64,000 nt of DNA, taken from positions 43,492 through 107,491 of the forward strand of contig CAYPVU010000007.1 of the NCBI GenBank assembly GCA_964414295.1. The letters are read 5' to 3'. Below, in pieces: positions 27,120 to 46,057 of the stretch; within the stretch, counting starts at the first letter, position 1; the number at the start of each line of letters is the position of its first letter. This DNA comes from an uncultured Candidatus Saccharibacteria bacterium (GTDB lineage: Bacteria; Patescibacteriota; Dojkabacteria; J137). The notes beneath the pieces are model-generated. The model had not been told where the DNA came from and ran no database searches. It saw only the letters and a program-made list of their open reading frames with translations. The translations under genes were made by a program, and so were the position numbers.

Positions 27120-27330
27120 AGTGATAAGGAAATGTTATAGAAAACTTCGAACCGCTTTTAATTAGAATATTAAACGAAACTTATTCTGATTACGAGCAGG
27201 CCGGATTACCTAAGAATGGTTACACTATTCAGATGGAGCATGACATTAAAAGACTTTATCAAATTAAAATAAAAGACTTTATAAACAGTAACAAATAAGT
27301 TACAATAATCATAACTTTAAACATTGAATT

Positions 27331-27977: not shown

Positions 27978-27998
27978 GATATTTTTTATTAAGAATAT

Positions 27999-28235
27999 AT
28001 GTTCAACTTCTTTAAACCGAGATACATCGCATTTTTTAGTAAAGGTACTAATGATGAAGGCCAAAAAGTAGAAGTTGAAGTAACTCTTCCGGTTAATTCT
28101 TTCAGATTAGCAGAAGTTTTCACTGCAGATAAGTATTTTGTTGAATTATTAGCGCAACCGATAGGATGGGAAATTTCAAAAGAAACTTATATGAAGCTTC
28201 GAAAGTTCTTACATATTAAAAGTACAAGGCTATGA
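27999..28235 (+). CDS. Small hypothetical protein
   Basis: 78 aa. ATGA-type overlap with the next gene. Confidence 0.3.
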   Translation: MFNFFKPRYIAFFSKGTNDEGQKVEVEVTLPVNSFRLAEVFTADKYFVELLAQPIGWEISKETYMKLRKFLHIKSTRL

Positions 28236-29239
28236 AGATAGCTTTTTTAGGTAATTTCAGAGTAGATTATACTTCCGAAACACACTATTTAAAAACACTA
28301 CAAAGATTAGGCCATGAAGTTATTGCTATTCAAGAAGGAAGTGCAGAATTAGCAGTGAATAAAGAATCTTTTTTCAAGAATCTCGCAACTGTAGATATGT
28401 TCTTTTGGGTACATACTCACGGATGGAAAACAGAAGGACTTAGTAAAGTAATGCAGATAATTCGAACAAACAATATTCCGGTAGTTGGTTATCATTTAGA
28501 TTTATGGAAAGGTTTAAAACGAGAAAAAGACTTAGAAACCGATGATTATTGGAAATATCTAACCCACTTCTTTACCTGTGATAAATTATTCATTCCTGAT
28601 TTAGAAGAAAGAGGAATAAAGGCATATTTCTTACCTGCAGGAGTATTTCAAGATGAATGCTATTTAGGAGATTGGAAAGAATATTACAATTACGATGTTA
28701 TATTTGTAGGTTCGAAAACTTATCATCCGGAATGGCCATATAGAACGCAATTAATAAACTGGTTAGAAAAAAAATATGGAAAAAGATTTGCGCTTTTTGG
28801 AATGCAAGGTGTAAATAAAGCACAAATTAGAGGTAAGGAATTAAACAATTTATATGCTTCCGCAAAAATAGTAATTGGCGATACGCTATGTAAAGGATTT
28901 GATTATCCTTACTACCTTTCAGATAGAATTTTCGAAACAACCGGAAGAGGCGGTTTTATAATTCATCCTTATATCAAGGGGATTGAGAATTTGTTTAATT
29001 TAGGCCTTTATACTGCAGATGGGAAAGGTTTTAGAGCAGAAGGAAGAGAGCTAGTTACCTACAAGTTTAATAATTTTGATTATTTAGAATATTCGATTGA
29101 TTATTTTCTTAAACACGAGGATGAAAGGGAAATGATAAAACTAGCAGGCCATGAAAGAACTAAGAAAGATCACACCTACAAAAGCAGGATGTGGTTTATT
29201 ATAAATACTTTATTTCCTGATACAACGAACATTATATGA
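28232..29239 (+). CDS. Hypothetical protein (possibly glycosyltransferase-1/CgeB-like fold)
   Basis: The MKIAFLGNF... N-terminus resembles Rossmann-type GT1/CgeB starts. No firm motif. Confidence 0.3.
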   Translation: MKIAFLGNFRVDYTSETHYLKTLQRLGHEVIAIQEGSAELAVNKESFFKNLATVDMFFWVHTHGWKTEGLSKVMQIIRTNNIPVVGYHLDLWKGLKREKDLETDDYWKYLTHFFTCDKLFIPDLEERGIKAYFLPAGVFQDECYLGDWKEYYNYDVIFVGSKTYHPEWPYRTQLINWLEKKYGKRFALFGMQGVNKAQIRGKELNNLYASAKIVIGDTLCKGFDYPYYLSDRIFETTGRGGFIIHPYIKGIENLFNLGLYTADGKGFRAEGRELVTYKFNNFDYLEYSIDYFLKHEDEREMIKLAGHERTKKDHTYKSRMWFIINTLFPDTTNII

Positions 29240-29489
29240 AAATTGAAACGATTAAAGTAATTGAAAAAACAATAAGTGTACTATCTACAGTATGGTCAAG
29301 TGAAGATGTTTATAAACTACCACAGCAGCAGGAGACATCTTTAGAGCTATATTTGTTTCAGAATATTTGAAGAGTAAGAATACTGAATCATCACTAAAAG
29401 TAGCTTTGGAAACTGCGACCGAGTCAACAAGGTATAAAGGTGTTAACAATACAATTACTCAACTATTCCATCGAACTAAGAAATAACTT

Positions 29490-32400: not shown

Positions 32401-32573
32401 ATGAATCACTAATGAAAGAATTTCTAGAAAAGAAACCTGAATGGTTAAAGAAAGAAGCTGACCAAGAGAATTACTTGAAGCAAAAAGTCATTATCAAAAT
32501 ATTCGAAAAACTTGGTTACGAAGAATCTGGTGACGAAATAGTTTTTTTGATTGAACTTCCAAAGTTACAGTAG
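29490..32573 (+). CDS. Large (1027 aa) protein with N-terminal 4-TM membrane anchor and ~850-aa soluble domain, function unknown
   Basis: Hydrophobic helices within the first ~170 aa. The remainder is charged/helical with no recognised catalytic motifs. Confidence 0.45.
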   Translation: MGKLTEHTTSVWNESKIKESNAGLKAKFIAYLKPDKLGWNIWIVNALIFAVIFFLTHIFLFFPSLKPCSISPFEETNHLQNLFTLHAAVTALIFPMVFFIAEKLRSTDKDEGRVLIRESSFWHIIFFGTALFLNLVIAGDDIWRVAAYLVHFLYILLVLNSIRSIINILLNPLEMDKRTQQLYTQRMNRYNNELISLRIANNNFAGYLKQNPYTDFSFFNEDKEIVFKSEKFGTITDINIKALHKLINRVIKLSAQKEKLSDSSAESETPKPVEEKPAKPEIKVSRLIGHKVTQEHSNLLTIRGISNQDEKEVKQLVQQVFIINETKSFDEELEVELGAIRDDLIQSIRSNSQSKIKTKLDQIEKVTSSFLKALNAINSNYSAEDANQERGNLIERWNQIEFVTDILDDALQESLSTNNQKIVKEIIYFPFRLSRLAIKYNDHLIFQTFIGYIGRVYFLGNSRDIDKSVKEFIFDRSFRHLSEFANYVLVPDAEKQGGDADLSNYYSYFQSIAKVFVNLMKSAYDAKNEKHFARFATELSKIAKYFESRTYRNHYDDSDTDIDSKLKLKKHIEESKQDIFFGFASFILRDFMSSKDEKLKPYIQKLESLLPNDIKEFTEIFIRVHNFDMGEVWGWDWWHVREDEEHFSKIETLPNLEKFYAVRGLALVGHLDQNYLERIDMPTSRDLYYLTEGTRDLLNLLNHIKQNPTQYSYLIADITEEKVNKFISLLDKAKQKQIEIDKKTIVGSSLDEEKVAEFIKDFRDGYNRHTVLRSIFKAYSKIEDKTDTYIKQPEARGVNQVEDKEAFIRDWHVHYAELGEHFGSNMAYFQNQKLLSFAKEKSHALTIEELLQTEEDPTDLIAILAGSNLYELKEMYENNKSVRLFSSWEVASDTAESKLPVLGEHIDGFIEIKNVKVPIIIIDGERDKPELIVIKPSSLGKAIQYKPLESVDSDSLIEGIFSLEIIDIAKDESLMKEFLEKKPEWLKKEADQENYLKQKVIIKIFEKLGYEESGDEIVFLIELPKLQ

Positions 32574-32682
32574 CAATCTCATTTATAATTCTCATCAAAT
32601 TAAGTATAATTAACTCATAAGTTTTAGGAAGACCTAAACTCAGTGCTTGCATTGGGCATGGTTGAACTAAAATATACAAAAT

Positions 32683-32812
32683 CCACAACGACGATAATAG
32701 CGGCTTCCTAGCCAGCACTTCGTCGTTGTGGTCGAGAACTCCGAAAGGGTCTCGGGTACGTACGAAAGGAGGTATCGCTGGTGTGGGAAGCCACTTTTGC
32801 TTCCTGCTAACT
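32683..32812. other. GC-rich structured element (candidate ncRNA / structured leader)
   Basis: Perfect 11-bp inverted repeat ccacaacgacg(32683-32693)/cgtcgttgtgg(32721-32731), plus further hairpins (ccga-aagggtc-tcgg; ggaagc-cactttt-gcttcc). Local GC is far above the AT-rich background. Confidence 0.3.
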
Positions 32813-32853
32813 TTCCATATCAGCACTACATTATTTTAGTTATATTTACTGAT

Positions 32854-33810
32854 ATGAATGGTGACAACGACACTATTTCAAGGATTAAGCGTTTTCTAGG
32901 TGACAAAAGGAAATTAATGTTTACTTTGCCTCTAGGATGTTTAATATTACTTTGTTTCTGCTGTTTCTCAATCTTCTTACTAGGTTACTTCCTCCCGCCG
33001 ACACTTAAACTTGCTGCTGACGATAACGGTAAAGCTGTATTAGAGCCGAACTATACAATCTCACTTGAATGCTCTGGCATTACCCAACTCAAATTGAACG
33101 ACAAAGAACTATCTACGCAAGAACGAGATGCAATTTGTAGCAAGACTGGCTATAAAGCCGATTTAGTAAATGGTGATAATGCTTTTAACCTTGAAGGTAG
33201 TGATTTGAAAGGTCAGAAGGTAGAGTTAGCTTTTACAATCAAGTATGACGAAGCCGAACATGAAAGAATCCTTGCGCAGCAAGAACAAGATAGACTTGCT
33301 GAAGCTGAAAGACAAAAACAGCTCGAAGAGGAAAATAAGCGAAAGCAGGAAGAGGAAGCTAAACAAAAAGCTGAACAAGACGCAAAAGCTTTGAGTGAAT
33401 GGAAAAACAAATACTACCAATATAAATCCTCAAATATCGATGTTAACTTTGCCAAGTCCAGCGAAATGATTCAGGTATTAAGTAACGGCGTTGATTCTTA
33501 TCAGAGTAGAAATCAAGCAAAGAATTATAAGCAATACTTTGTAAGCCAATGTAAAGCTACCTTAGAAAATGACCTAAAACCGATACCATCTACAGTTAGT
33601 CAAGAAATCAAAGACCTAAACACATTCTACAGCGATTTTTGCCTGTACAACAACTCGTTAGCCAGCAAAGTTGTAAGCTACTTTGAGTCTACCTCAACAC
33701 AAGACCAGTACAACAATCTAGATATGATTACCTACTACATGGGCGAGGTTAACAATGCAAAACTCAATATGGAAGGCAAGATGTCAGCTATTGATTCTAA
33801 GTTAAAGTAA
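32854..33810 (+). CDS. Membrane-anchored coiled-coil protein
   Basis: The ORF track starts at 32728 but the first 42 codons cover the GC-rich structured element. The internal Met at 32854 precedes a TM helix (LGCLILLCFCCFSIFLLGYF) and a KQ/E-rich coiled coil. Confidence 0.4.
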   Translation: MNGDNDTISRIKRFLGDKRKLMFTLPLGCLILLCFCCFSIFLLGYFLPPTLKLAADDNGKAVLEPNYTISLECSGITQLKLNDKELSTQERDAICSKTGYKADLVNGDNAFNLEGSDLKGQKVELAFTIKYDEAEHERILAQQEQDRLAEAERQKQLEEENKRKQEEEAKQKAEQDAKALSEWKNKYYQYKSSNIDVNFAKSSEMIQVLSNGVDSYQSRNQAKNYKQYFVSQCKATLENDLKPIPSTVSQEIKDLNTFYSDFCLYNNSLASKVVSYFESTSTQDQYNNLDMITYYMGEVNNAKLNMEGKMSAIDSKLK

Positions 33811-33829
33811 GTTTTAATTAACAACAAAT

Positions 33830-34057
33830 ATGGATAAAAAATATGAAGTCAAAACAATAAAGTACAACAACGAGAGAGCAATGACGCAAGGCAAGAAGAA
33901 TATGATTAGCAAAGGTTGGGAGGTGGTAGAAACTGTAACAATAAATGGGAGATATGGCTGTTTCAATACAGCCTGTTTGGGTTGCTTATTCCTACCATTG
34001 GCACTGCTGGGTAAATCTAGTGATAGCTATCAGGTGACGTATAGAAAAGTGAAATAA
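33830..34057 (+). CDS. Small hypothetical protein
   Basis: 75 aa. Confidence 0.25.
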   Translation: MDKKYEVKTIKYNNERAMTQGKKNMISKGWEVVETVTINGRYGCFNTACLGCLFLPLALLGKSSDSYQVTYRKVK

Positions 34058-34119
34058 ACAAAGTACAAAATAGTTTACTTTGGAAGTATAATTGGTTAGA
34101 TATTTCTTACTTATTAAAT

Positions 34120-34596
34120 ATGAGTGCAGATAATCTGCTATCAGAAGGTTTGCAAAAAGGTTTTGGTGGTTCAACAAACATTGAAAAAACTTCCAGAGGT
34201 AGCTTTCAACTCACTTCAAGTCATTATGAAGGAGGTAGCGGAGTTTATCACGATGAATGGGTGACTGGCGGCGGACAAGAACTTGTAAGAACACAAGATG
34301 GTGAATCAATGACTAGAACTTATGTTGGTAATGTTATTGCGCCTGAAAAATTGGAAGAATTGGGTATAACAGAAAAAGATGTAATGACTGTACTTAAAAG
34401 AGTAATAACTGAACATGGTGACCAGATTAGATTAGGAGATGATTTCGAAATAACATTGGACGACTGGCTGTACACTTATAAAGTAACTTACAGGCGTGAA
34501 GACCCTTATATTATTAACGGAATTGAAGAAATCCTTTATAAAGACCAGTCAGTTTTTGTTCATACTTTTGGAATTAGCAAGGTAGTCGAAAGCTAA
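34120..34596 (+). CDS. Hypothetical protein
   Basis: 158 aa. Confidence 0.3.
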   Translation: MSADNLLSEGLQKGFGGSTNIEKTSRGSFQLTSSHYEGGSGVYHDEWVTGGGQELVRTQDGESMTRTYVGNVIAPEKLEELGITEKDVMTVLKRVITEHGDQIRLGDDFEITLDDWLYTYKVTYRREDPYIINGIEEILYKDQSVFVHTFGISKVVES

Positions 34597-34619
34597 TCTT
34601 ATTCATTATTAGTTAGCTC

Positions 34620-34988
34620 ATGTACCATGCAATCATAATTAACAAACAGTTTGTAGACAGCAATTATCCTAACACAAAAGATGTATTTGCGAAGAAAGTT
34701 GATGGAGATTGGGAGATTTTTGGAGTAAAAGTGGAAGATAGTGAACTGGATGACTTTATTGCAGAAGTCCAACAAAATATGAGGCCAAATCAAACTTGGT
34801 ATGCGCATGCCTACAACGATACTGAAATGCTTGTTATCTTCAAAGATAAAGTAATCAAAGTCACTCCTCACCAGTCAACTTGGACTCCAATCTTTGAGTA
34901 TGGGAAATCACTTGGTATTCCTGAAAAGCAATTAGATTTCTGGCCAAATAGATTTCAGGATGAGAAGCATTATTTTGAGGAGAAGTAG
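34620..34988 (+). CDS. Hypothetical protein
   Basis: 122 aa. Confidence 0.3.
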   Translation: MYHAIIINKQFVDSNYPNTKDVFAKKVDGDWEIFGVKVEDSELDDFIAEVQQNMRPNQTWYAHAYNDTEMLVIFKDKVIKVTPHQSTWTPIFEYGKSLGIPEKQLDFWPNRFQDEKHYFEEK

Positions 34989-35340
34989 TGAAGCGGGGTG
35001 GAGGGTAAATCTTAAATCTGAACATTCACTACAGAAAGTAGTTGAACTCCTTGCTGTATAAAAGATTCAGGGTATTTGATAATATTAACCCAGTTGGAAG
35101 TTCGAAAATCGTCCCAAGCTTCCCGCCATTTTGCTTCGGTTGCTACAAGACCCGTCTACCTCCCTCTATGTCCTTTAATGGTGTTGTAGATTGGTGATCC
35201 AGAATCGCTAGATTTGCAAAAAGCACTTTTTTACCTCAAAAGTCCTCTAAATCTAAATTTATGAAAGCCATTTGGTTCTAAGGTTTTTTGTTGTGTGTGT
35301 TGAGTTTATACAGTTGATATTTTCGGTTCGAATCTTGTCC

Positions 35341-36174
35341 TTATGATTGAATATTTGGAAATAATTTCTCATATTCATCTGTTGTCATAATATCGTTTAA
35401 AAACTGTTCGAGTTTGATCGTTCTCTTAACCTCTACTAGTCCTTCAGATAAACTTTTGTCTATATCTATACTTTGAAGATCATGATTCAATGTAGTCATA
35501 AAGATAGATACTAGGGCTACATCTTCCTTACTTGATATGTCCTTTAGATTTGAACTAGAAGAAAAAATGAAAAAAGTATCAAACTGCCTAATTCTTAATT
35601 GTGAGATTACTAGATCATGCTCATTAACTACTCCCACTTGAGCATTCAAGCTAGATACATATTGCCAAACATCACCAGGTACATCAATAGCCTGGCAAAC
35701 AAAAATATAACTATTATTTACCACAGGATCCCCATCTTTAATCGACTGTAAAATATCTTTGTCTATTTCAATATGTTTAGGTAAACTTGGGATCGCATCT
35801 CTTACAAGATTTAAGTGTGTCTTTAACAACCACCCAAGTGTTTTATTATTGAATGTTAATTTTAATGCCTGACCATCTTCACTATTCAATATTTCGTTGG
35901 CTAGTGTGCAACCTGCATCATCGAAACCATTAATACTTAATTTTGTATTGCAATCTTGGCAAACATCCTTAATAACACCCTCAAAGTTTTTTAACATCTT
36001 CCACTCACCACCCTTTTTGCCATGATGCATATTTTCGATTTTAGGTCCATATAAAACTTTTAGAACAGATGCTGAAACTAAATGTTCGGATGATAAATTT
36101 GAAGTCTTACCACAATAAATACATTTTTTAGCCATTTTTATAAAATTAGTGGGTAAATTAGTGTGAGAATACAC
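35341..36174 (-). CDS. HNH-endonuclease-like protein (N-terminal CxxC...EHLV motif) with unknown C-terminal domain
   Basis: CIYCGKTSNLSSEHLVSASVL resembles the HNH core (CxxC .. EH(I/V)xP). Last gene of the six-gene minus-strand operon. Confidence 0.4.
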   Translation of the reverse strand: MYSHTNLPTNFIKMAKKCIYCGKTSNLSSEHLVSASVLKVLYGPKIENMHHGKKGGEWKMLKNFEGVIKDVCQDCNTKLSINGFDDAGCTLANEILNSEDGQALKLTFNNKTLGWLLKTHLNLVRDAIPSLPKHIEIDKDILQSIKDGDPVVNNSYIFVCQAIDVPGDVWQYVSSLNAQVGVVNEHDLVISQLRIRQFDTFFIFSSSSNLKDISSKEDVALVSIFMTTLNHDLQSIDIDKSLSEGLVEVKRTIKLEQFLNDIMTTDEYEKLFPNIQS

Positions 36175-36206
36175 CTAGTTAACTAATTTTAGCAATATTA
36201 ATTCTG

Positions 36207-37550
36207 TCAGATAAAACTTAAACTTCTATTTATTAACTTAAATTTGGAATTAACACCCCCCAGTATTTTCAATCTTTCTTCTGGAGTACCGAATTGAAGT
36301 ATATGAAGTAAATATGATTGGAGCATCTGAGACTCAGATTCAGATAGATCTGACTGGTTTACATTACCATTTCTATGAGGAGTTAAGTTAATTGTCTCTT
36401 CACCTTGTTTATATATAATCCCTTTCAAATGATTTAGTCTTTTGACCTCTTCTTCAAACTCTTGCCATAAATATTTAATATTTAGCTTTAATTCAGGAAG
36501 CAGAACTATTAATTGTTTGATCAATTCTTCTTCAGTAATATATGGTTCCTTACAATCATAATCTTTAATTCTATTGCAGTGGTAATAGATGTGAGTATTA
36601 ATAACTCCTTTTTTTGTTCTTCTGTATTTAACTTCTGCTGTAACACTTCCACCACATCTCCCACATTTGCATATCTTTTTAAACGGGAATACTTGTTTAT
36701 TCCATTGTCTGGGAACAACTTCAAGTTGAATCTGAACCTTATCAAAAATATATTTGGAGATCAAGGGTTCATGAATTCCTTTATACCATTTCTTACCGTA
36801 TTGAAATTCTCCATAATAAAAAGGATTACTGAGAGCAACATAAATTCTACCTAAGCTTAATTTGTAACCTTTTTTTGTTTGAAAGTTTTGTTTGTCTAGC
36901 CACTTTTTAACCATTCTTCCTGAATATCCTTGGTTGGCAACTTTATAAAACATTTCTTTAATTACATGAGCTCGTTCTGGATCTAAATCAACTGAAGCTA
37001 TCCTATTTCCTTTCATTGTATTTAAGTAGCCAATTGGAGCCATTCCAGGCCGAATTCCGATACCACATTTATTCCTCAAGCCTCGCTTAACATTGATTCC
37101 TCTATTATCATTTTCAAGTTTTGCCTGAGAACACAGAATCATCAATAAGAACTTTTCATTTGGATTATTGCTGAAAGTTTGAGAATGAGTTTTAATAAAA
37201 AGTAACTTTCCTTGATCCATTAGATCTACAACTCGACCTAAATCTCCTGCATTTCTAGAAATTCTGTCTGGAGCCCAGGTGACTATAGCGTTATATTTCC
37301 CTTTAGAAATATTCTCAAGCATGTAATTGAATTGAGGTCTTTGACCAGTTTCTTTTGCAGAATGGCTTTCTGTAATTACTTCATGAATTTCAATCTTTTC
37401 TCTCTTTGCCAATTCCTTCATTTCCATTAATTGGCCATCAATACTCATTGCTTGTTTTTCATCTGATTCTGAGGATTTTCTGGCATAAAGGCAGTATTGT
37501 ATTTCTTGGTCTGTAGTTTTCATTACCAAGGACAGTACCGCCAACCTCAT
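36207..37550 (-). CDS. Large serine recombinase (second copy, different sequence from 21566..23296)
   Basis: YCLYARKSSESDEKQAMSIDGQ catalytic serine motif, recombinase domain, and a CxxC..C..C zinc ribbon (CKCGRCGGS). Confidence 0.85.
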   Translation of the reverse strand: MRLAVLSLVMKTTDQEIQYCLYARKSSESDEKQAMSIDGQLMEMKELAKREKIEIHEVITESHSAKETGQRPQFNYMLENISKGKYNAIVTWAPDRISRNAGDLGRVVDLMDQGKLLFIKTHSQTFSNNPNEKFLLMILCSQAKLENDNRGINVKRGLRNKCGIGIRPGMAPIGYLNTMKGNRIASVDLDPERAHVIKEMFYKVANQGYSGRMVKKWLDKQNFQTKKGYKLSLGRIYVALSNPFYYGEFQYGKKWYKGIHEPLISKYIFDKVQIQLEVVPRQWNKQVFPFKKICKCGRCGGSVTAEVKYRRTKKGVINTHIYYHCNRIKDYDCKEPYITEEELIKQLIVLLPELKLNIKYLWQEFEEEVKRLNHLKGIIYKQGEETINLTPHRNGNVNQSDLSESESQMLQSYLLHILQFGTPEERLKILGGVNSKFKLINRSLSFI

Positions 37551-37565
37551 TCAAAGTCCAGCAGA

Positions 37566-39110
37566 TTACCACCACCTTGGATCATCTCCATCCCAATAAG
37601 AAGGCCTGCTTCCATACCAACTTTGTCCCCCACCTCTGAGTAAAGCTGCTGCTTCTCCAGTAATGACTTGAACTCCAGGTCTGTCTTTTTCTGCAACTTT
37701 TAGTAATACCATAGTAAATGCATCGACCAAATCATCATGTTTTTCTACACCAAAATATATAAGTTGCTGTATTAAATCTTCAGCTCCATTTCTCGGAAAT
37801 AGAACTTGACCTAATCGAATAAATGGAGTGACAGAATTTAATCTTGATCTTTTATCTTGTCCATGAACTTTAAACCCTTTTGCATTCAGTCCTTTATTTT
37901 TTAATTGCTGAATTACCGATGCTTGATATCCTACCTCTTCAATATATACTTCAGGTCTTCTGCCATAATGTTGCTCACGGCCTTTTTCTTTCAATACCTC
38001 AATTGTTGTTGGAAACTCAACTCTTTTATTAAATGGATGCGGTAAAATGTAAACCTTCAATTTTTCAAGGTTCCCAAATACATGTGCCGTTACCATAGCA
38101 CTGTAGTCTGCAGAATCATTCATAGAAATAGCTAGATCAACTCCGATAATTGTATACTCGTAATCTTTAGTATTTTCAGGCAAGGTGTCATAATATTGTA
38201 TCCATTCTCGATAAACTAGCTGATCATCTTCAGGAATAATTTTAAGCATGTATTCTCTTTGCCATGCTTTATCATCTCCTATGATGTTTTTAAAATCATT
38301 AATGGCATCCATATCCTTAAATTTACTTAGCCAAAGTATGTTATTGTTGCTATCTACAATTGGATATTCTCGAAATATTGCATTCATATTTTCTTCAGTA
38401 ATTTTCTTCTTTAATCTCATAAGAAGAGAATCTTCGTGCAAAAGATTTCCAATCATTATTATTTTTGTAGTTTGATCACCAAGAGGAATAACTTCACCAG
38501 TTAACCATGAATATGTTTTATCTCTGCTTTCTTTTGTTTTAATAGTAGCTAGATCTTCAACATCATCACAGATTATTAAATCAGGTCTATGAGCTCCATG
38601 TCTAATACCTCGAATACTTTGCTCACTAGAAGCTGCAATAATTCTTGCATTAAATTTTGGAAGAACCAATGAGTATGAACCCCATTCATCAGATTCTTCT
38701 TCTAAAGCTCCTAAATCATTTCTTAAAACTTCATTACTTTCTAGCTCACGTTTTAAATTGGCAAAGTGAGTTCTAACTTGTTGTTGAGTTTGAGAAATTA
38801 TTACAACACATTTCTTTTGTTGCTTACCTAAAATTGCCCATAGAGGGTATGACATTGTCATGATTGTTGATTTAGCAGATCCTCTAAATGCAATGATTAC
38901 TGCCATCTTTATTTCATCATCTTCAGTTATTTTGAACATTTCTCTTTGAAAATCAGCTGTAGGGTAAGCAACATACTCACTAAAATATAGATGAAAAAAC
39001 CAATAATGACTTTCTCTTGTCAATTCTTTTCTAGCTCTTTTATCAACTAGAATCTTTTCAATTATTTCCATAGGCATCTCGAAATCTTTATTAATTTGTT
39101 TCTTGTTCAT
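37566..39110 (-). CDS. terL: Phage-type terminase large subunit (ATPase + RNaseH-like nuclease)
   Basis: Walker A AFRGSAKST, Walker B LIICDDVED, and C-terminal nuclease acidic residues (GVDLAISMNDSADYSAMV, KHDDLVDAFTM). Confidence 0.8.
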   Translation of the reverse strand: MNKKQINKDFEMPMEIIEKILVDKRARKELTRESHYWFFHLYFSEYVAYPTADFQREMFKITEDDEIKMAVIIAFRGSAKSTIMTMSYPLWAILGKQQKKCVVIISQTQQQVRTHFANLKRELESNEVLRNDLGALEEESDEWGSYSLVLPKFNARIIAASSEQSIRGIRHGAHRPDLIICDDVEDLATIKTKESRDKTYSWLTGEVIPLGDQTTKIIMIGNLLHEDSLLMRLKKKITEENMNAIFREYPIVDSNNNILWLSKFKDMDAINDFKNIIGDDKAWQREYMLKIIPEDDQLVYREWIQYYDTLPENTKDYEYTIIGVDLAISMNDSADYSAMVTAHVFGNLEKLKVYILPHPFNKRVEFPTTIEVLKEKGREQHYGRRPEVYIEEVGYQASVIQQLKNKGLNAKGFKVHGQDKRSRLNSVTPFIRLGQVLFPRNGAEDLIQQLIYFGVEKHDDLVDAFTMVLLKVAEKDRPGVQVITGEAAALLRGGGQSWYGSRPSYWDGDDPRWW

Positions 39111-39492
39111 CTTCTGAATTATTAACAGATAAATTAAACGCCATGCTCAACGATTTTCTAATCGTTTCTTTTTGTTCTTCAGTTAGCGGAAGATCAGCAC
39201 TTTTAGTAGTAACTTCTAACTTTGGAGAGTATTGCTTATGGTGATTTTTAAGCCAGAATATGATCCCTGTCATATTTCCATTTTTAATTGATGTTATTAA
39301 TTGGCTCTCAGCCATATCATTAACCAACTGAGAGCCCTCATTTAAAGCAAATTCCGCTTCTTCAGCAAATTTCTGATCTCTTTTCTTCCATCTATAGAAT
39401 GTCGCTCTGCCGATTCCAATCTTTTTACAAGCAACTTCAATGACTGGAGTTTTTCTTAGTTGTTCAACTAATTCTTTCTTTTTATTTTTCAT
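39091..39492 (-). CDS. Terminase small subunit-like HTH protein
   Basis: ACKKIGIGRATFYRWKK HTH. Size 133 aa. Immediately upstream of terL and overlapping it. Confidence 0.5.
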   Translation of the reverse strand: MKNKKKELVEQLRKTPVIEVACKKIGIGRATFYRWKKRDQKFAEEAEFALNEGSQLVNDMAESQLITSIKNGNMTGIIFWLKNHHKQYSPKLEVTTKSADLPLTEEQKETIRKSLSMAFNLSVNNSEDEQETN

Positions 39493-42287
39493 GATATTTT
39501 TACTCCTTTCTTACCAGTTAATTTTTCCCAACGATTCTTAATTACTTCTGCATAAACTGGTGATTTTTCCATTAAGTAACATCTTCTTTTCATTTTTGTT
39601 GATGCGATTAGTGTTGAACCGCTTCCTCCAAATGGTTCAATTATCAAATCATCCCTTTGGGTCAGAACTTTAATGTATGGAATTAGAATTTCGAGTGGCT
39701 TAGTTCCAAAAATAATTCCTTGACCAGAACTTTTTTCATCTGAAGCTTTATATTCAATAAAGTCAGTTGGCTGAATCTTTTTTCCTTTTTCATATCCTTC
39801 CCAGTGTGGTTTACCAGCAGTTGCATAGAGAGCAGATTCGTATTCATTTTGTAGAAGCTCATCTTCTGGTTCTAAGTTCAAAGTTTCTTTATTTTCAGTT
39901 GACCCAACCATAGCAATATCATGCTTCGAAAAGAATTTATATTTAGCTGCAAATCCTTGATTCCTATTTGGGAGATGCCAAACTAACATATTCTTAACTT
40001 TCCAGTATTTTTCCATTTCATTCCAAATTGTTCTAATGTTTTTCCAATTTTCATAAACGATAATATGAAAGTTGTCCTTCGAAATTTTAGATACATTCCC
40101 CATCCATAGCTCTGTAAAGTTATCCGGGAGCTCATCTAACTGATTCTCGTGTTGATAATTAATTGACCTAGAAATTAAATATTTTAAAGGCTTAGAATTA
40201 ATCCAATCAAAAATTAATATGGAATAAAATTTCAAGAGATTAATTTGCTTTTCATTTTTTGCAAGTTTAAGTATCTGATCTCTGCCTACCTCTTCTTCTT
40301 GCCAGTTATAGTATTTGTGCATAAATTTTAGCACTTCAAGAATTTCATTTGTTGTTGGGTTACTAGTGAGCTTAATAAGAGAGTTACTATCTAGTTTCAA
40401 GATTTGATTCTGATACTCTAGACTAATTGATGATGAAACCTTAAGTATATCCATTGGAACTTTATTTGAATTAGTTTCATTTTCAAGAACCTTAGCCGAG
40501 TCAGGGATTTCTGTTAGGAGTGTGTTTAAAAATACTGATCCGGTTCTTTCGATTGAGTGCAGAAGTGCGATATTTGAATAGTGATTTAAGATTTCTACTT
40601 CGTAATTGGTGTTACTTTTTCTAGTTAACTCATGGTCTCCTAGAGTTAAAAATATATTCTCATAAAACTTTTTCTGTCCATCTATAACTTGCGATTTTAC
40701 TTTCGGCGGTTTTTCTTTTGAGAAAAGATCTTCAAGTACACTTTTCTTATTCCAGTCTTTAGCATTCTTTTCTTTAACGACAAAGATGTTGCCTGAGAAT
40801 TCCTTACTAAGCCTACCAGCTCTACCAATAAGATTCAGGAAATCTACCTTTCTAAAGTTTGACATACCGATTTTCTCACTAAGTATGAATATATTTTTTG
40901 CTGGAAGATTCACTCCTTCTAATAATGTTGAAGTACAAAAAAGATAATCCAGATGACCGTTCCTAAATAAATTCTCTAGTTGGACTCTAATTCTCTGAGG
41001 TAGATCACCAAAATGAAATCCTATTCCTTTTTTAAGGCAATTTATTAAATAATATTCTTCATGAATAGTTTCTTTTATTAGCTTTATAAGTTGATTAACC
41101 TTTTCGTCATTCTTATCCAATAGTTGCTCCGAAAATTGAATAGCATAATCTCTTGTTTTATTTTTAGAATTACAATAAATTATACTTTTCCCAGTTCCAG
41201 AAATTGAAGTTATCCATTCAAATAAGCCTTTATCGTTATTCAAATGCATAGAACTTGTTTCAAATTCTCCAATAATTTTTAATTCTTGATCCTGGAGATC
41301 AAGGAAATATTTATTTTGTGATACTGGACTTTCAATAGTATAAAAAGATTCATCAGTGCTCTTATCAAAAAGTTTCAGGTAAATCTCAGGATTAGATATG
41401 TTTGGTGATGCAAAGTATAGTTTCATAGATTTCTTTTGCGCCTGCAAAATCGCATGATAATACAAAGGACTTCTTGTATCTTTTTCTGATATGACTTTAT
41501 GTGCTTCGTCAATAAACAAATATTCAATTGAAGGATTATTTTTGTCAGATATGTATGATATTAACCTCTCAGGAGTGAAAATAAATATGTAATTATTACC
41601 CTTATTTTTTATGTATTGTGGAATTTTCGGATGAACTAGTATTTCGAAATTATTAATCTCTTTAAAATTCTCCTTAAGCTTTAAAAGATTTTGATTGATT
41701 AGTGCACGTGTTGGCACTAGAATTGCAATATTATCCTTAATTTTTTCTTCAATAATTAAATATTTTATAAATGATTCAATAATAAATGACTTTCCTAATG
41801 ATGTTGGACCAGAGAAGCTAAAATGTTGATTTTTCTTTAGTAGTTCAAATATATTGTACTGGCTATCCGTAAATACAAGTTCTGAATTAGGAACAGCTTG
41901 AATTGAGCGTTTTATAGTTTCTTCATATTGATTTTCAGTAGGAATTTGAAATTCAGCATTACTTCTTGTCTTTTCAAAAAATTTAATAGCAGGGAAATTC
42001 CCAAGTTTAACTAATATTACTTTTAAGATGTTTTCTATAATTTGAGGAGATTTATGATACTCAAAAATAAGACTAACTATTTTATATGCTAAATTTCTTG
42101 CCATTTCATTTTGTGACGAAGATAATATGTCTGCAAACCTCAATAAGTGATAGAATTCTTTTTCAGATAGACCTTCATCAATTTCAGTACTCAGTATATT
42201 CTCATAGGATATATTCACCTCAAGTTTAGTTATAATTTTCGCAAGGTAGTTATCATTAAGTGCTTTTTTTGCTAACTGTTCTATCAT
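39489..42287 (-). CDS. SF2 DExH helicase fused to a C-terminal beta-class N4/N6 DNA-methyltransferase-like domain (catalytic DPPY motif not found)
   Basis: Helicase motifs: SGPTSLGKSF (I), ILVPTRAL (Ia), FIDEAHKV (II), TSTLLEGVNLPA (V), LIGRAGRL (VI). C-terminus: LVWHLPNRNQGFAAKYKFFSKHDIAMV and GTKPLEILIPYIKVLTQRDDLIIEPFGGSGSTLIAS match the PF01555-type segment ..TQKP..DPFxGSGTT. No D/N/SPPY motif upstream (VYENW occupies that position). Confidence 0.7.
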   Translation of the reverse strand: MIEQLAKKALNDNYLAKIITKLEVNISYENILSTEIDEGLSEKEFYHLLRFADILSSSQNEMARNLAYKIVSLIFEYHKSPQIIENILKVILVKLGNFPAIKFFEKTRSNAEFQIPTENQYEETIKRSIQAVPNSELVFTDSQYNIFELLKKNQHFSFSGPTSLGKSFIIESFIKYLIIEEKIKDNIAILVPTRALINQNLLKLKENFKEINNFEILVHPKIPQYIKNKGNNYIFIFTPERLISYISDKNNPSIEYLFIDEAHKVISEKDTRSPLYYHAILQAQKKSMKLYFASPNISNPEIYLKLFDKSTDESFYTIESPVSQNKYFLDLQDQELKIIGEFETSSMHLNNDKGLFEWITSISGTGKSIIYCNSKNKTRDYAIQFSEQLLDKNDEKVNQLIKLIKETIHEEYYLINCLKKGIGFHFGDLPQRIRVQLENLFRNGHLDYLFCTSTLLEGVNLPAKNIFILSEKIGMSNFRKVDFLNLIGRAGRLSKEFSGNIFVVKEKNAKDWNKKSVLEDLFSKEKPPKVKSQVIDGQKKFYENIFLTLGDHELTRKSNTNYEVEILNHYSNIALLHSIERTGSVFLNTLLTEIPDSAKVLENETNSNKVPMDILKVSSSISLEYQNQILKLDSNSLIKLTSNPTTNEILEVLKFMHKYYNWQEEEVGRDQILKLAKNEKQINLLKFYSILIFDWINSKPLKYLISRSINYQHENQLDELPDNFTELWMGNVSKISKDNFHIIVYENWKNIRTIWNEMEKYWKVKNMLVWHLPNRNQGFAAKYKFFSKHDIAMVGSTENKETLNLEPEDELLQNEYESALYATAGKPHWEGYEKGKKIQPTDFIEYKASDEKSSGQGIIFGTKPLEILIPYIKVLTQRDDLIIEPFGGSGSTLIASTKMKRRCYLMEKSPVYAEVIKNRWEKLTGKKGVKIS

Positions 42288-42288
42288 A

Positions 42289-43200
42289 TTAGGATGTTAT
42301 AGATTGAGTTATATCAGTTCTAGCTTTATCTAGTTCTGTAAAAGGTAAAATGTATAGATAAAAGCAATGGCCAGCTAAATCATGTTCACTAATCTTATTT
42401 GAAATATTTTTGAACTGACCTTCCACTTCTTTTCTTATTTTATTATTTATAGAATTTCTAAAATCATTATTTGACAATCTCTTTTCTTCGGGAGATAGCT
42501 CTATCTCATAACCTATAAATATCCCAAAAGCATCATCTACCTGGAAACTATTACTTTCTTTTGGATAAATCAAATCTTGAATGATTGAAATTTCCTCAGC
42601 TGTGAAAGATTCATTCTCTAGGTGGCTACTAATAAGGGCCTTCTCAAAATTAATCCCACTTTTTTCATCCCCTTTATTATTTACCTCATTTTTGAAATCT
42701 GATATAGATTTTAAGGCTTCACTTATGGCATTCGTAAGATCCTTTATTGTTTTGGACTCTCCAAATATGATTTGATAGTTACCATTTTCTAGTCTAAGAA
42801 AATGGATACCGTCTGAGCCATTTACATAAAATTTATTAGATGTCTTTAATTCTAGTTTAGATAATATTTTGGGAGCTTTAAGATGATTTTTTAAAAAACA
42901 ATAAAGCAAAAGCTCACCAAGTTCTCCTGTATTCATTTCCTTTATGAATCTTTCTCTAGCTCGCTTAGATAGAGTGGCCGGTTTCCCTTGTAGTTTTTCT
43001 CTTGTTTTTCCGGATAATGAAAAGTCTATTAAAGGTTCCAATAATCTTTCTTTAATAAGATCATAGTTAAATGAGTTGGCATTAATATTATGGACAAATA
43101 GACTTAGTTTAGTTTTAGGGTTTAGTGGATCTATTTCCCTACTATCTATTAAATTTACAAATGATTCTAAAAAATCATCATTCATATCTATATTTTTCAC
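42289..43200 (-). CDS. PD-(D/E)xK-like nuclease candidate (Hachiman HamA-like position)
   Basis: VNGSDGIHFLRLENGNYQIIFGESKT gives D-x18-ESK, compatible with the PD-(D/E)xK core. 303 aa. Abuts the helicase gene with a 1-nt spacer. Confidence 0.35.
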   Translation of the reverse strand: MKNIDMNDDFLESFVNLIDSREIDPLNPKTKLSLFVHNINANSFNYDLIKERLLEPLIDFSLSGKTREKLQGKPATLSKRARERFIKEMNTGELGELLLYCFLKNHLKAPKILSKLELKTSNKFYVNGSDGIHFLRLENGNYQIIFGESKTIKDLTNAISEALKSISDFKNEVNNKGDEKSGINFEKALISSHLENESFTAEEISIIQDLIYPKESNSFQVDDAFGIFIGYEIELSPEEKRLSNNDFRNSINNKIRKEVEGQFKNISNKISEHDLAGHCFYLYILPFTELDKARTDITQSITS

Positions 43201-43288: not shown

Positions 43289-44914
43289 ATGCAATATCTT
43301 CAGAATCAACAATATTATGAAGATCGTTATGACTTATTAACTATCGAGCTTTGCCTAGATAAGATTGATTTCGTAAATAAGGTTGCAAAAGATTCTCTTG
43401 ATTCTCCTGATTTCAAAAATACTCCAATCGAAGAGGTTGATAAAGGATGGCGATATGTTCTGCATGAACAGCTTTTAAATACCGAATTACACAGATATAA
43501 GAATCGAGAAACTGAAATAAACAAATCAATAGAAGAAGCCAGACTCAGACAAGATAAGTATGATAATACTCCAGCTCCATCAGTTAAATGCACTACTTGC
43601 AGAAAATTAATGGATGTAACAATGAAGTCACTTGATTGGCATGATACGGATCCAAAGAAAATGCTATTTTTCTTTGAATGCCCTTCATGTAAGAAGCGTA
43701 AACATGTTTGGGAAGATGGAAAGGAATGGATCTATGAACCCGATCTTTGTCCAAAATGTAAGTCAGAAGTTAAGCAAAGTTATAAACGAAAAGGCGATAT
43801 AGTTACTACTATAATAAAATGTACTTCATGTAGTTATAAGAATGTAGAAGTTGATGACTATAAAAAAGATGAGGAAGAAAGATTGCTGAAAAAACAAAAA
43901 GAGAAAGATTTATTAGAAAAATATAGACCAGAGTTTTGTTTATCAAAAGAGAAAGGTGATGAGTTACTGGATGGATTTGAACAGCTCAAGTTTATGAATG
44001 AAGTATATGAATATGAACTTCAAAAATACCAAGATCCAGCTTTTGAAAAAACCTTTAATGTAAAAAAGCTAACCATTATTGAACTTGAAAAGCTACTTAA
44101 TAAAAAGTTAGTTAAATATAAGTTTAAAAAATTAATTTTAGATAAACCCGAAATTACTCGATTTGTCATAGTCCCATTCTCAGTTCAAGATAATGATACA
44201 AATAGAAACAACAAAGATAGTACTAAAGAATTAGAGAAAATAATTAAAGAAACTTTAGAGATAACAAACTGGAGACTTACACCAGATGGTACTTCGTATA
44301 GATTAGGATATATATCAGGAAGGTTAAAAGGCTATGAACGAGATGAAGACCTACATGAATTATTTGGTAAAAAGAATGAAGAACCTAAAACAGAATTAGA
44401 TCCTGAGAAACTTTCAAAGTATTCAAATACTGCTGAAATAGCAAGATTATTTGCTAAGGTAGAAATAACAGATAGGTTAAGAAAGAAGAGATTAGTAAAA
44501 GAACCTGAGGGTTTCTTTTTAGAAGATCGAGAATCTGGTTATTCATGTAATCTTTGCTCTAGAGGTCTTAAAGGCAGTGAATCATGGTGGAACTTAGACG
44601 GTATTCAATGCATAGACTGCAGAAGAAATGTAAAGGAAGGAATAATTCCTGCTGAAATTATTAAGAATCATGATCTTTGGATTGCAAATTGGCAATTTAA
44701 AAGTGAATTTCGATTACATTCTGCTACAGTTAGCAAAATGAAACGAAATGGTGAACTCGTCGGTCGAGAATTAAAAGATTTAGAAGGTAAGACTTACTTT
44801 ACTGTTTACATGGTTGAAGATAATAAAAAGTTCTTTAAGAAGCATAGAAAGACTTCAAGCAATAATAGAAAATGGGAGTTTGTTGATAAGGATGGAATTG
44901 AGATATTACTTTGA
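43289..44914 (+). CDS. Zinc-ribbon-rich hypothetical protein
   Basis: At least five CxxC pairs (CTTCRK, CPSCKK, CPKCKS, CTSCSYK, CNLCSR...CIDCRR). 541 aa. Divergent from the nuclease/helicase operon. Confidence 0.4.
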   Translation: MQYLQNQQYYEDRYDLLTIELCLDKIDFVNKVAKDSLDSPDFKNTPIEEVDKGWRYVLHEQLLNTELHRYKNRETEINKSIEEARLRQDKYDNTPAPSVKCTTCRKLMDVTMKSLDWHDTDPKKMLFFFECPSCKKRKHVWEDGKEWIYEPDLCPKCKSEVKQSYKRKGDIVTTIIKCTSCSYKNVEVDDYKKDEEERLLKKQKEKDLLEKYRPEFCLSKEKGDELLDGFEQLKFMNEVYEYELQKYQDPAFEKTFNVKKLTIIELEKLLNKKLVKYKFKKLILDKPEITRFVIVPFSVQDNDTNRNNKDSTKELEKIIKETLEITNWRLTPDGTSYRLGYISGRLKGYERDEDLHELFGKKNEEPKTELDPEKLSKYSNTAEIARLFAKVEITDRLRKKRLVKEPEGFFLEDRESGYSCNLCSRGLKGSESWWNLDGIQCIDCRRNVKEGIIPAEIIKNHDLWIANWQFKSEFRLHSATVSKMKRNGELVGRELKDLEGKTYFTVYMVEDNKKFFKKHRKTSSNNRKWEFVDKDGIEILL

Positions 44915-45007: not shown

Positions 45008-46057
45008 ATGGTGAATGTAAATTTTGATAGGGAGTACTATAAAAATTTAATAGCGAAACATGGGTATCAAGAGCTAAATATTTCTGCAATTGACTTCAAT
45101 CTTGGCAATATTAACAAAGATATACTTCAGAGAAAATGGTTATGCCATAGTAAAGGAAACATATTTGCTAAAGAACTTCTAAACACAAAATCAATTGTAA
45201 CAACTGGTATAGGAATAAGTGGTGCTCCACATATGGGCACTTTAGGACAAATTTTTAATTCTATATTCCTTCAAAATCACGGTATCAATACGCAATTTGT
45301 ATTGGGAGATTTAGATGCTTATAACGGTAAAAAGCTTTCATTATCTTACGTAAGAGAACTTTCAGAGCAGTATAAATCATTTATTACTAACTTAGGCTAC
45401 TCTACAACGAATGGAAATATATTAAGGAATCAGTTTGATGCAAATGAAGTTACTAGGACCATGTACCTAATTGCAAAGTTTATAGAAGATAAAGATTTTG
45501 ATAATGTAGAAGAAGATCTTCACAACTTTTATTCTGATAAAGGAAAAGTAGATAAGGATATGTCCTTTAGACGTAAGACTTCTCTTACTCTTATGACTGC
45601 AGATTTTATAGATCTTGTTATCAATCACAGTTTTACTAACGTGTTAGTTACATTAGGAGTAGATGAACATAGGTATGTTTTGTTTTCAGAAAAGATTCTC
45701 GAAAGAGTTATAGAATCCGGTGAAATATTACCGAGCGACAGTAATATAAATTTTGGAGCAATGTACACTCACATAATCAGAGGTTTTAATAACTATCCTA
45801 AAATGTCGAAATCATTCCCTGATTCTTCCATAAATATTGAAATGAATTCAGATGACATAAGAAATAGAATCTTGAATGAAAAAACAAACAAAATTCCAGA
45901 AGAAGACACTGTATATCAAATGATGTGTCTAGTAAGTAAATTTAATAGTGAGGACCTGTCTGAAAGATATATTGCATGCAAAGAAGATAAAGCATTATGG
46001 AAGAAATATAAAAGCGACTATTTAGAATACTTGATAGATATTTTTAAACTGTGGTGA
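45008..46057 (+). CDS. Class I aminoacyl-tRNA synthetase paralogue of archaeal-type TyrRS/TrpRS family
   Basis: Exact KMSKS motif (YPKMSKSFPDSS). GISGAPHMGTLG occupies the HIGH position. LQNHGINTQFVLGDLDAYNGKK parallels the M. jannaschii TyrRS segment [24 protein letters not shown]. Confidence 0.6.
   Translation: MVNVNFDREYYKNLIAKHGYQELNISAIDFNLGNINKDILQRKWLCHSKGNIFAKELLNTKSIVTTGIGISGAPHMGTLGQIFNSIFLQNHGINTQFVLGDLDAYNGKKLSLSYVRELSEQYKSFITNLGYSTTNGNILRNQFDANEVTRTMYLIAKFIEDKDFDNVEEDLHNFYSDKGKVDKDMSFRRKTSLTLMTADFIDLVINHSFTNVLVTLGVDEHRYVLFSEKILERVIESGEILPSDSNINFGAMYTHIIRGFNNYPKMSKSFPDSSINIEMNSDDIRNRILNEKTNKIPEEDTVYQMMCLVSKFNSEDLSERYIACKEDKALWKKYKSDYLEYLIDIFKLW

Follow-up and report, generated by a model that had tools for sequence, protein, structure and literature searches.

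We have analysed a block of six adjacent minus-strand genes in a 64,000-nucleotide stretch of DNA (contig CAYPVU010000007.1, positions 43,492 to 107,491, called the window in the following) from an uncultured bacterium of the candidate phyla radiation (CPR, Patescibacteria). In the direction of transcription, the genes encode the nuclease HamA, a 932-residue protein in which the helicase HamB is fused to a part of a DNA methyltransferase (MTase, or methylase), the small and large terminase subunits TerS and TerL, a large serine recombinase (Rec), and a small protein called g6 (see Table 1 for coordinates). A preliminary description, made from the letters of the window alone, had put the block forward as one new system. 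The results presented below make it likely that the locus is instead a composite, consisting of a phage-derived cassette island, a Hachiman cargo joined to it by a deletion, and the unrelated gene g6. The single six-gene operon is lineage-specific and accidental.

According to this reading, the backbone would be formed by a methylase with a ParB domain (ParB-MTase), TerS, TerL and the serine recombinase, which would constitute the conserved core of a family of CPR genomic islands. At one end of the island, the recombinase would be directed towards a tRNA gene (here tRNA-Ser), facing its 3′ end. The island would have two slots for exchangeable cargo, mostly anti-phage systems, the first separating the left-edge gene c10 from the methylase and the second separating TerL from the recombinase. 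In the present lineage, a type I Hachiman would have occupied the slot, after which a deletion of ca 1.8 kb would have created the in-frame chimera of 932 residues. The same deletion would have brought TerS, TerL and Rec immediately downstream of the Hachiman genes, such that the whole reads as a six-gene operon. The observations that carry this reading are the composition of the cassette and the selection on it, the chimera, the turnover of the cargo, the absence of virion genes, the adjacency to tRNA genes, and a circular copy.

The conserved cassette

The terminase pair and the large serine recombinase, both recognised already in the preliminary description, are borne out by matches to Pfam, PHROG and NCBIfam-type profiles. 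TerS is matched by PHROG terS families (7e-10 to 4e-4), while TerL is matched by phrog_38 (1.1e-80), PF17289 and TIGR01630. In the 17 sequences of alignment A1, the TerL residues of Walker A (G77, S78, K80, S81, T82) and Walker B (D182, D183, E185), as well as the acidic residues of the nuclease, are invariant. Rec contains the Resolvase (PF00239, 2.7e-20), Recombinase (PF07508, 1.3e-13) and Zn_ribbon_recom (PF13408, 7.6e-08) domains, matches the phrog_95 integrase family (1.6e-57), and has the serine motif YARKSSE.

Thousands of TerL relatives were found at 50–65% identity, with source names from Patescibacteria or CPR, and a scan with one genome per species shows the protein to be encoded in at least 536 species-representative genomes, almost all of them CPR. 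An archaeal provirus, which matches to the psiM2 terminase domain and to ATPase_2 could bring to mind, was ruled out, as the close relatives are all from Patescibacteria. No description of a CPR terminase cassette was found in full-text searches of the searchable literature.

To see what travels with the terminase, we can consider 83 loci, made up of 80 species-level loci with 10-kb flanks and the three contigs L001–L003, in which all open reading frames (ORFs) were clustered. Only four clusters are widespread, namely the MTase (74 loci), TerS (80), TerL (82) and Rec (60); the next largest occurs in 18. The MTase, a protein of ca 430 residues encoded immediately upstream of TerS, was missed in the preliminary description. 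Intact copies (e.g. those of L004 and L021) consist of ParB_N (PF02195) and N6_N4_Mtase according to Pfam, and two methylases are present in some clades. A TerS homologue lies directly upstream of TerL in 80 of the 83 loci, and in the 60 loci with Rec the recombinase gene follows either straight after TerL or 1–8 kb downstream, with variable genes in between. In many copies, a divergently encoded LexA/CI-like S24 repressor (18 loci) or a Cro-type helix-turn-helix (HTH) protein (12 loci) is a neighbour as well.

HamA, the HamB helicase and g6 are absent from the loci of the 80 other species and are found only in L001–L003. The exact six-gene arrangement is thus confined to contigs of the same strain that are 99.96% identical. 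Its conservation in other genomes had been named beforehand as one test of a six-gene system; none is seen beyond these three contigs, and the proposal of one such system is essentially refuted.

The cassette itself evolves under strong purifying selection. The ratio of nonsynonymous to synonymous substitution rates (dN/dS) among the window, L004 and L005 is 0.03–0.11 for all four genes (0.04–0.07 for TerS and 0.05–0.07 for TerL), values that are approximate since dS is saturated. Across 25 diverse CPR loci, the mean pairwise identity is 70% for the methylase and 49–53% for TerS, TerL and Rec, and between the four genes these identities are only weakly correlated (Spearman 0.2–0.55). An identity of 70% is unusually high for a DNA methylase (an example is found at 8297–9622 of L004).

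The Hachiman pair and the HamB–methylase chimera

We now consider the first two genes of the block, for which a Hachiman-like pair of nuclease and helicase had been suspected. Judged by Pfam and PADLOC profiles, the pair is a type I Hachiman. HamA matches PF08878 (3.2e-56, 191 bits with a cut-off of 25) and the PADLOC model HamA1 (PDLC00156, 1.2e-107), carries the nuclease E-x-K motif in the form GESK, and is 68–71% identical to the HamA proteins of the contigs L164 and L167. The 932-residue protein matches the PADLOC model HamB1 across residues 1–761 (5.8e-246), with further matches to DEAD, ResIII and Helicase_C, and its ATPase motifs GPTSLGKS and DEAH are intact. At its C-terminus, the Pfam N6_N4_Mtase profile matches residues 713–917, beginning at profile position 20.

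Both parts of the earlier “helicase-MTase fusion” are therefore present, but the fusion turns out to be the product of a deletion, and its methylase half lacks the DPPY motif. Using blastp, residues 1–713 of the chimera align with residues 1–713 of the 854-residue HamB of L164, while residues 716–932 align with residues 226–442 of the L167 MTase, and residues 670–932 with residues 178–442 of the L164 MTase. The last ca 218 residues match the C-terminal half (ca 225–442) of intact ParB-MTases with 340–470 bits in phmmer. In the alignment with these, the homology sets in abruptly at 'LDELPDNFTELWM', and the first residues that are homologous to the intact proteins of 441–447 residues read LDELPDNF. 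Of the sequence features of a beta-class N6/N4 DNA methyltransferase, motif IV (TDPPY), which in all ten aligned intact MTases is located ca 33 residues upstream of the fusion point, is missing from the chimera, while the S-adenosylmethionine-binding motif I (FGGSGS, here EPFGGSGST) is kept. No tblastn match to the N-terminal half of the MTase, with its ParB_N domain, was obtained anywhere in the window; residues 226–441 of the L004 and L005 MTases, on the other hand, map to window positions 40142–39495 with 89–95% identity. At the DNA level, the homology to L004 and L005 is confined to the region covering the 3′ half of the methylase together with TerS, TerL and Rec (40130/40137 to 36233/36224).

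The fusion is not seen in other HamB proteins. A query with the helicase part (residues 1–716) yielded 119 non-self relatives of 793–868 residues, nearly all of them between 844 and 868 and one of 793. None of the 119 has a methylase domain, and HamB together with PF01555 occurs only in the cluster of the window itself. The HamB homology stops at residue ca 713, compared to a length of 853–858 residues in the closest relatives, and the full-length HamB architecture is accordingly not attained. The domain order of HamB is NAH, which binds HamA, followed by RecA1, RecA2, WH*, CAH and a C-terminal OB-like barrel (PMC12278908). Mapped on this order, the ca 140 absent residues probably include the OB-like end, and the HamA-binding and motor parts are kept.

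The origin of the chimera can be read from the contigs L164 and L170. Here, the order is c10 (in the opposite sense, on the minus strand), an HTH gene, a type I restriction-modification (R-M) system, HamA, HamB (854 and 853 residues, respectively), a gene of 213 or 217 residues, the ParB-MTase (442 residues), TerS, TerL and Rec. This layout appears to represent the ancestral state of the window locus, and a single deletion of ca 1.8 kb that joined HamB codon ca 713 to MTase codon ca 226 explains the fusion. Relative to L164 and L170, the C-terminus of HamB, the gene of ca 215 residues, and the 5′ half of the MTase, with the ParB domain and DPPY, are removed. It is this lineage-specific event that accounts for the tight coupling between HamB and TerS. 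From its sequence, the methylase copy in the window is predicted to be catalytically dead, and HamB may be impaired. A designed HamB–MTase fusion was considered and ruled out, as the fusion occurs in this strain cluster only and DPPY is lost at its junction.

Some further details of these genes can be mentioned. In L017, the apparent truncation of the MTase seemed at first sight to share the same point and could have indicated a recombination hotspot; this was ruled out, since the MTase there is full-length with one in-frame stop and the truncation is an artefact of ORF calling. The stop (LIFDL*VDSPEIF, in the ParB-MTase at ca 8300–9625) could mean a pseudogene, a sequencing error or recoding. 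Compared to the window, L001 has an additional A in HamB codon 6 (position 42271), which shortens HamB to 909 residues, L001 and L003 have an additional G in Rec codon 430 (36262), and L001 lacks a T in c10 (44829), the contigs being otherwise identical. These indels could be either assembly errors or first inactivating mutations.

Cargo slots

The genes that occupy the two slots differ from copy to copy. In the position that HamAB takes up in the window, between c10 and the methylase, L005 has 8.6 kb of other genes, among them an SNF2 helicase and a TerB_N/SngA-like gene (Shango-like). In other copies, the slot that precedes the methylase or the one between TerL and Rec contains a type I R-M system, a PLD-SNF2 helicase with a type IIG R-M enzyme, a Shedu-like gene with an SduA_C domain, or a copper-ATPase/DsbD module. 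The orientation of HamAB relative to the cassette is not fixed either: they are co-directional in L164 and L170 and divergent in L167, L169 and L172, and a separate HTH_17/MerR gene stands upstream of HamA in L167 and L172. Furthermore, the identities to the window are incongruent, L167 having a HamB that is 67% and a TerL that is 47% identical, and L164 having corresponding values of 58% and 65%. Because the slot contents are swapped, the orientation varies and the HamB and TerL identities disagree, HamAB is taken from these comparisons to be exchangeable cargo in an island hotspot rather than part of a fixed multi-gene system. What lies beyond c10 on one side and beyond the tRNA on the other also varies between lineages.

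In L167 (13632–15014 and 15403–16725), HamAB shares its slot with a Shedu-like SduA_C gene that comes after it, and beyond this gene a second serine recombinase and a copper-resistance module are found, which suggests tandem or nested islands.

Absence of virion genes and relation to phages

The absence of capsid, portal and tail genes, noted already in the preliminary description, holds up both with PHROGs and with custom profiles. None of the neighbours of the six-gene block has a structural match in PHROGs. Custom hidden Markov models (HMMs) of the portal, protease, major capsid protein (MCP), adaptor and tail proteins of related phages gave no hits in the window or in 2.0 Mb of cassette loci, the search covering 125 loci with ±10 kb in addition to the whole window. 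Virion genes hidden in the ORFs of 1027, 425 and 360 residues were considered as well, and were rejected, as these have no PHROG or custom-HMM hits and lie in a separate 13.4-kb insertion (see below).

In IMG/VR, contigs with a TerL that is 42–54% identical contain the same portal-less cassette. True phages are encountered at 30–39% TerL identity, and according to PHROGs their genes are ordered as ParB-MTase, (second MTase), TerS-like, TerL, portal, protease, MCP, adaptor and tail. As the gene orders match, the cassette corresponds to the start of a packaging operon that is cut off after TerL. In a simple neighbour-joining distance tree without support values, the 105 cassette-type TerLs form one clade, from which the 43 portal-linked phage TerLs are excluded. 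The best deposited phage or plasmid TerL is at most ca 28% identical to that of the window. Taken from the sequences, the cassette is thus best described as neither a decaying nor a normal prophage.

Around 27 contigs listed as viral in IMG/VR (L084–L110, L146, L147 and L151) contain only the portal-less cassette with R-M or other cargo. These are probably pieces of CPR chromosomes or islands that were flagged as viral through their TerL.

tRNA adjacency and a circular copy

Among the 52 Rec-bearing loci examined, 18 have a convergent tRNA gene no more than 3 kb downstream of Rec, compared to ca 1.8 expected from the tRNA density. It is a tRNA-Ser in nine cases, and Gln, Asp, Tyr, Arg and Glu also occur (at least six identities). 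In the strains that do not have the 13.4-kb insertion, the 3′ end of the tRNA-Ser is located 218 bp from the g6 stop codon, and the tRNA is convergent with Rec and g6.

A copy that is probably circular is provided by L019 (JAFGMD010000010.1), from a Falkowbacteria metagenome-assembled genome. This is a complete contig of 17,334 bp with an exact overlap of 44 bp between its ends, and an ORF of 412 codons, leading from a signal peptide to an Ntox44 toxin domain, reads through the end junction. Because of the overlap and the ORF through the junction, L019 is probably a circular molecule of 17.29 kb that carries the cassette. It encodes two methylases, TerS, TerL and two serine recombinases of ca 580 residues, and no structural or replication domain was recognised among its other genes. 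The short cassette-only contigs in IMG/VR have no terminal repeats; these were found only in L019 and in the phage contig L160.

Proposed mechanism and alternatives

The mechanism that we favour, although only tentatively and at a little less than an even chance, is a satellite-like one that combines integration, packaging in helper procapsids and protection by the methylase. In this scenario, the serine recombinase would integrate and excise the island at tRNA 3′ ends, and the TerS and TerL of the island would recognise and cut its DNA, packaging it into procapsids supplied by a helper phage. The helper would be a relative of the portal-bearing phages whose TerL is 30–39% identical. The methylase would protect the packaged or transferred DNA, and cargo such as Hachiman would benefit both the host and the island. 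Of the two uses of the terminase that had been suggested earlier, satellite-like hijacking of a helper is thus the one retained, with the reservation just stated, while a repurposed effector within an integrated system is strongly disfavoured.

A number of observations weigh against the composite-island reading and the mobility attached to it, and they are collected here. Comparison of flanking-gene contexts gave no empty site and no attP, attL or attR for the cassette island. No replication gene and no excisionase or recombination directionality factor was recognised in the window, in the recurrent neighbour clusters or in L019. Many of the island ORFs (c10, c17 and the accessory genes of L019) are without annotation. 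The spread of the cassette, which is very broad, often in single copy, and at 50–70% identity across CPR classes, and the local synteny, with c10 beside the island in several lineages, would also fit a host module that is long resident and inherited vertically. Of the six closest HamB contexts, five have HamAB beside the cassette, and some functional link between the two is possible. The saturated dS and the simple nature of the TerL tree, both mentioned above, count in the same direction.

We weighed, in this order, a domesticated module, an immunity or interference trio, an integrated defence system and prophage decay. The domesticated module would be a mainly vertical CPR host function, either similar to a gene transfer agent with its head genes elsewhere or involved in DNA processing, next to which defence genes accumulate. 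It is unlikely, but the least so of the four. Its occurrence in at least 536 species of many CPR classes, the strong purifying selection with invariant catalytic residues, the monophyly of the TerL clade well apart from the phage TerLs, and the shared synteny (c10 common to the window, L005, L164 and L170; a LexA-like gene adjacent in 18 loci) would all be in keeping with it. What it does not readily accommodate is the recombinase–tRNA geometry with at least six tRNA identities, together with the circular 17.3-kb copy and the flanks that differ between lineages. The weak correlation among the identities of the four genes, the incongruent HamB and TerL identities, and a cargo, metal resistance included, that is typical of mobile islands are equally difficult to reconcile with vertical descent, and there are no structural genes within ±10 kb in the 125 loci.

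In the second alternative, methylase, TerS and TerL act as an immunity or interference module, either in the manner of restriction-modification or by terminase interference. Methylation would mark self DNA, and the concatemers of related invading phages would be cut or wrongly packaged by TerS/TerL. The trio is consistently embedded among defence systems, its methylase is the most conserved gene (70% mean identity), and packaging genes encoded by satellites are known to interfere with helper phages (PMC9618062). However, no PADLOC model matches it, the window retains TerS and TerL in spite of a dead methylase, which under a true R-M logic would be toxic, and the linked integrase and tRNA geometry are better explained by mobility; we therefore regard it as quite improbable. 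An integrated defence system of all six genes, with Hachiman as the sensor and the terminase and recombinase as effectors or partners, is slightly more improbable still. The genes do run in one direction at short distances, no internal terminator is predicted, and the HamAB of this clade adjoins the cassette in five of six contexts, co-directionally in L164 and L170. Yet 80 other species have the cassette without HamAB, the pair is divergent in L167, L169 and L172 and has its own HTH_17/MerR regulator in L167 and L172, and R-M, Shango-like or Shedu-like genes occupy the same slot elsewhere. Hachiman is, moreover, a two-gene system (PMC12278908), the coupling of HamB to TerS stems from a deletion that truncated HamB and killed the methylase, g6 is unlinked in another genome, and TerS, TerL, Rec and g6 have no PADLOC model. 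Least credible of all is an ordinary decaying prophage remnant, that is, the left end of a packaging operon with an integrase. The order ParB-MTase, TerS, TerL does coincide with the start of the morphogenesis operon in related phages, and ca 27 such contigs are listed as viral in IMG/VR, but the same stop after TerL recurs in more than 100 loci across CPR classes with a monophyletic TerL clade, and the active sites are intact at a dN/dS of 0.05–0.07; random decay would not spare exactly four genes.

Comparison with known systems and significance

The composite island can be compared with several known types of element. With type I Hachiman systems, which consist of a DUF1837 nuclease (HamA) and an SF2/Ski2-like helicase (HamB), it shares the adjacent HamA and HamB with strong PADLOC scores, the GKS, DEAH and E-x-K motifs, and the helical bundle that binds HamA. 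It differs in that HamB ends at residue ca 713 of ca 854 and runs into a dead methylase half, which is the case in none of the 119 relatives.

The island works most like phage satellites that redirect packaging, and like the cargo hotspots found in mobile elements. Among the satellites, PICIs and PICMIs are known elements whose features served for the comparison, together with those of marine VEIMEs and, for the serine integrase, PLEs. Like these, the island has an integrase at one end by an attachment (att) site, here a tRNA 3′ end, with the site in the window being a putative one; it has its own packaging-specificity gene (TerS), lacks capsid and tail genes, and contains slots with anti-phage cargo. 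CI/LexA- and Cro-like regulators, present in many island copies, are another common trait, and serine recombinases are used by PLEs and some VEIMEs (PMC9618062). Unlike the satellites, the island possesses a complete terminase (TerS and TerL) and a ParB-methylase, no replication module or AlpA/excisionase was recognised in it, and it occurs in Patescibacteria. The class of satellites called cf-PICIs (capsid-forming PICIs) has its own terminase genes as well, in addition to capsid, portal, protease and connector genes. The cassette shares the former with them, but none of the latter were found in the 125 loci. We know of no satellite described in Patescibacteria.

The packaging modules of tailed phages resemble the cassette in order and homology, with TerLs that are 30–39% identical in uncultivated phages that have head genes. 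The cassette, in contrast, stops after TerL, continues with cargo and a serine recombinase, and has its own TerL clade. Defence islands and the hotspots in mobile elements (P2- and P4-type hotspots, integrative islands) are similar in that a conserved core flanks a slot whose content (here Hachiman, type I or type IIG R-M, Shango-like or Shedu-like) is swapped between lineages. Here, however, a terminase cassette together with c10 forms the core on either side of the slot, the genomes are CPR genomes of ca 1 Mb, and inversion of the cargo block occurs (L169 compared to L170).

While Hachiman is already known, the backbone cassette appears to be undescribed. It is possible, if somewhat short of probable, that it forms the core of a new, phylum-wide type of packaging-competent integrative island in Patescibacteria, which would have a full terminase and no capsid, insert at tRNAs and shuttle defence cargo. 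CPR genomes, with a size of ca 1 Mb, are considered poor in mobile elements as well as in defence systems. If the proposal is correct, a satellite-like vehicle would explain the movement of defence systems among these bacteria. The element would be the first of satellite type to be described in CPR, in which it would also be a major route for the flow of genes and for immunity. The TerL clade would be a simple marker for CPR defence islands, and pipelines of the IMG/VR type would mislabel many CPR chromosomal fragments as viruses. The chimera, finally, is a natural C-terminal truncation of HamB that could be used to probe the role of this region.

Organisation of the block and neighbouring genes

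The features discussed are collected in Table 1.

Table 1. Positions of the features in and around the six-gene block, in window coordinates.
Feature	Position	Strand	Length	Remarks
tRNA-Ser(GCT)	21607–21697	+		ARAGORN and Rfam; 3′ end is the integration point
Separate integrative element	21698–35122		13,425 bp	absent from L001 and L003; not part of the six-gene unit
g6	35341–36174	−	277 aa, probably 264 aa	near-orphan outside the conserved cassette
Rec, large serine recombinase	36207–37550	−	447 aa	presumed island integrase; cassette core gene
TerL, large terminase	37566–39110	−	514 aa	ATPase and RNaseH-like nuclease; cassette core gene
TerS-like small terminase	39091–39492	−	133 aa	N-terminal HTH; cassette core gene
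ParB-N6/N4 MTase 3′ half (codons ca 226–442)	39489–40142	−		in-frame fusion to HamB
HamB part of chimera (aa 1–ca 715)	40143–42287	−		N-terminal helical bundle, RecA1/RecA2, GKS and DEAH motifs
HamB–MTase chimera	39489–42287	−	932 aa	HamB part and 3′ methylase half
HamA	42289–43200	−	303 aa	DUF1837 PD-(D/E)xK nuclease effector, type I Hachiman; cargo gene
c10	43289–44914	+	541 aa	zinc-ribbon-rich; left-edge gene of island, divergent from cargo slot

All six ORFs are present where the preliminary description had placed them, and the junctions given there (a 1-nt spacer, overlaps of 4 and 20 nt, and gaps of 15 and 32 nt) are exact for the longest ORFs. In homologues and according to gene callers, Rec starts at Met10 (37523) and g6 at Met14 (36135), so that gaps of ca 42 nt between TerL and Rec and ca 71 nt between Rec and g6 are more likely. 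The spacing is compatible with the operon that had been suggested, but these last two gaps are too wide for the translational coupling that had been claimed along with a single transcript. Three terminators are predicted in the block, compared to 3.4 expected by chance, and there is no terminator-like site between genes on the minus strand. In the window, TerS, TerL and Rec are probably transcribed from a Hachiman promoter in the 88-bp spacer between c10 and HamA.

Of the six identities assigned initially, five are confirmed by profile searches. The remaining one, g6 as an HNH protein, does not reach the Pfam cut-off: the match to PF14279 (HNH_5) has 16.9 bits with a cut-off of 27.5 (E=0.006) and comprises 18 residues only. 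A motif CxxC...EH...CxxCN is kept in three of four homologues. The AlphaFold2 model is of low confidence (predicted local distance difference test score, pLDDT, of 40.3), a PDB profile search returned nothing relevant, and there is no phage match. Only four g6 clusters exist among 5.8 billion proteins. In the genome of L005, the homologue P0242 is located ca 430 kb from the cassette amid housekeeping genes, and g6 is absent downstream of Rec in L004 and L005. A role as cassette member or HNH packaging factor is therefore unsupported, given that g6 is a near-orphan, unlinked in this BroJett037 genome and modelled with low confidence; it is a small, unrelated gene that lies between Rec and the tRNA.

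The left-edge gene c10, with several invariant CxxC zinc ribbons, is 52% identical to a 544-residue gene at the same relative position in L164 (1471–3105). In alignment A3, the counterparts in L170 (755–2380) and L169 (12658–14298) are 88% and 43% identical to the window, respectively, and L005 carries a c10 fragment with 77% amino acid identity. The orientation of c10 is constant even where the cargo block is inverted (L169 compared to L170). Neither c10 nor c17, the gene of 213 residues, has a match in Pfam, PHROGs, NCBIfam, the PDB profile search or tblastn against deposited phages.

The 13,425-bp element between the tRNA-Ser and g6 is absent from the 99.96%-identical L001 and L003, which allows for an exact empty-site comparison. 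The junction is a 3-bp CCG overlap that falls exactly at the 3′ end of tRNA-Ser(GCT), with the discriminator base on one side and the encoded CCA on the other. The contig L002 terminates exactly at the junction (35123), which suggests that inserted and uninserted forms coexist in its sample. The element has its own serine recombinase of 576 residues (Rec2; phrog_95, 1.4e-77), whose ORF crosses the junction into the antisense strand of the tRNA. Its proteins of 1027, 425 and 360 residues have no family hits, and its other genes are a tRNA-Met (27906–27978), a bPH_2 protein and a glycosyltransferase-like protein.

Further along the window, ARAGORN predicts an 85-nt tRNA-Asp with the unusual anticodon ATC at 58312–58396 (Rfam tRNA, 42.8 bits), and a tRNA-Tyr (50856–50941) overlaps the 3′ end of the ORF at 49981–50901. 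Two class-I W/Y tRNA-synthetase-like genes are found nearby, at 45008–46057 (a weak match) and at 51070–52194.

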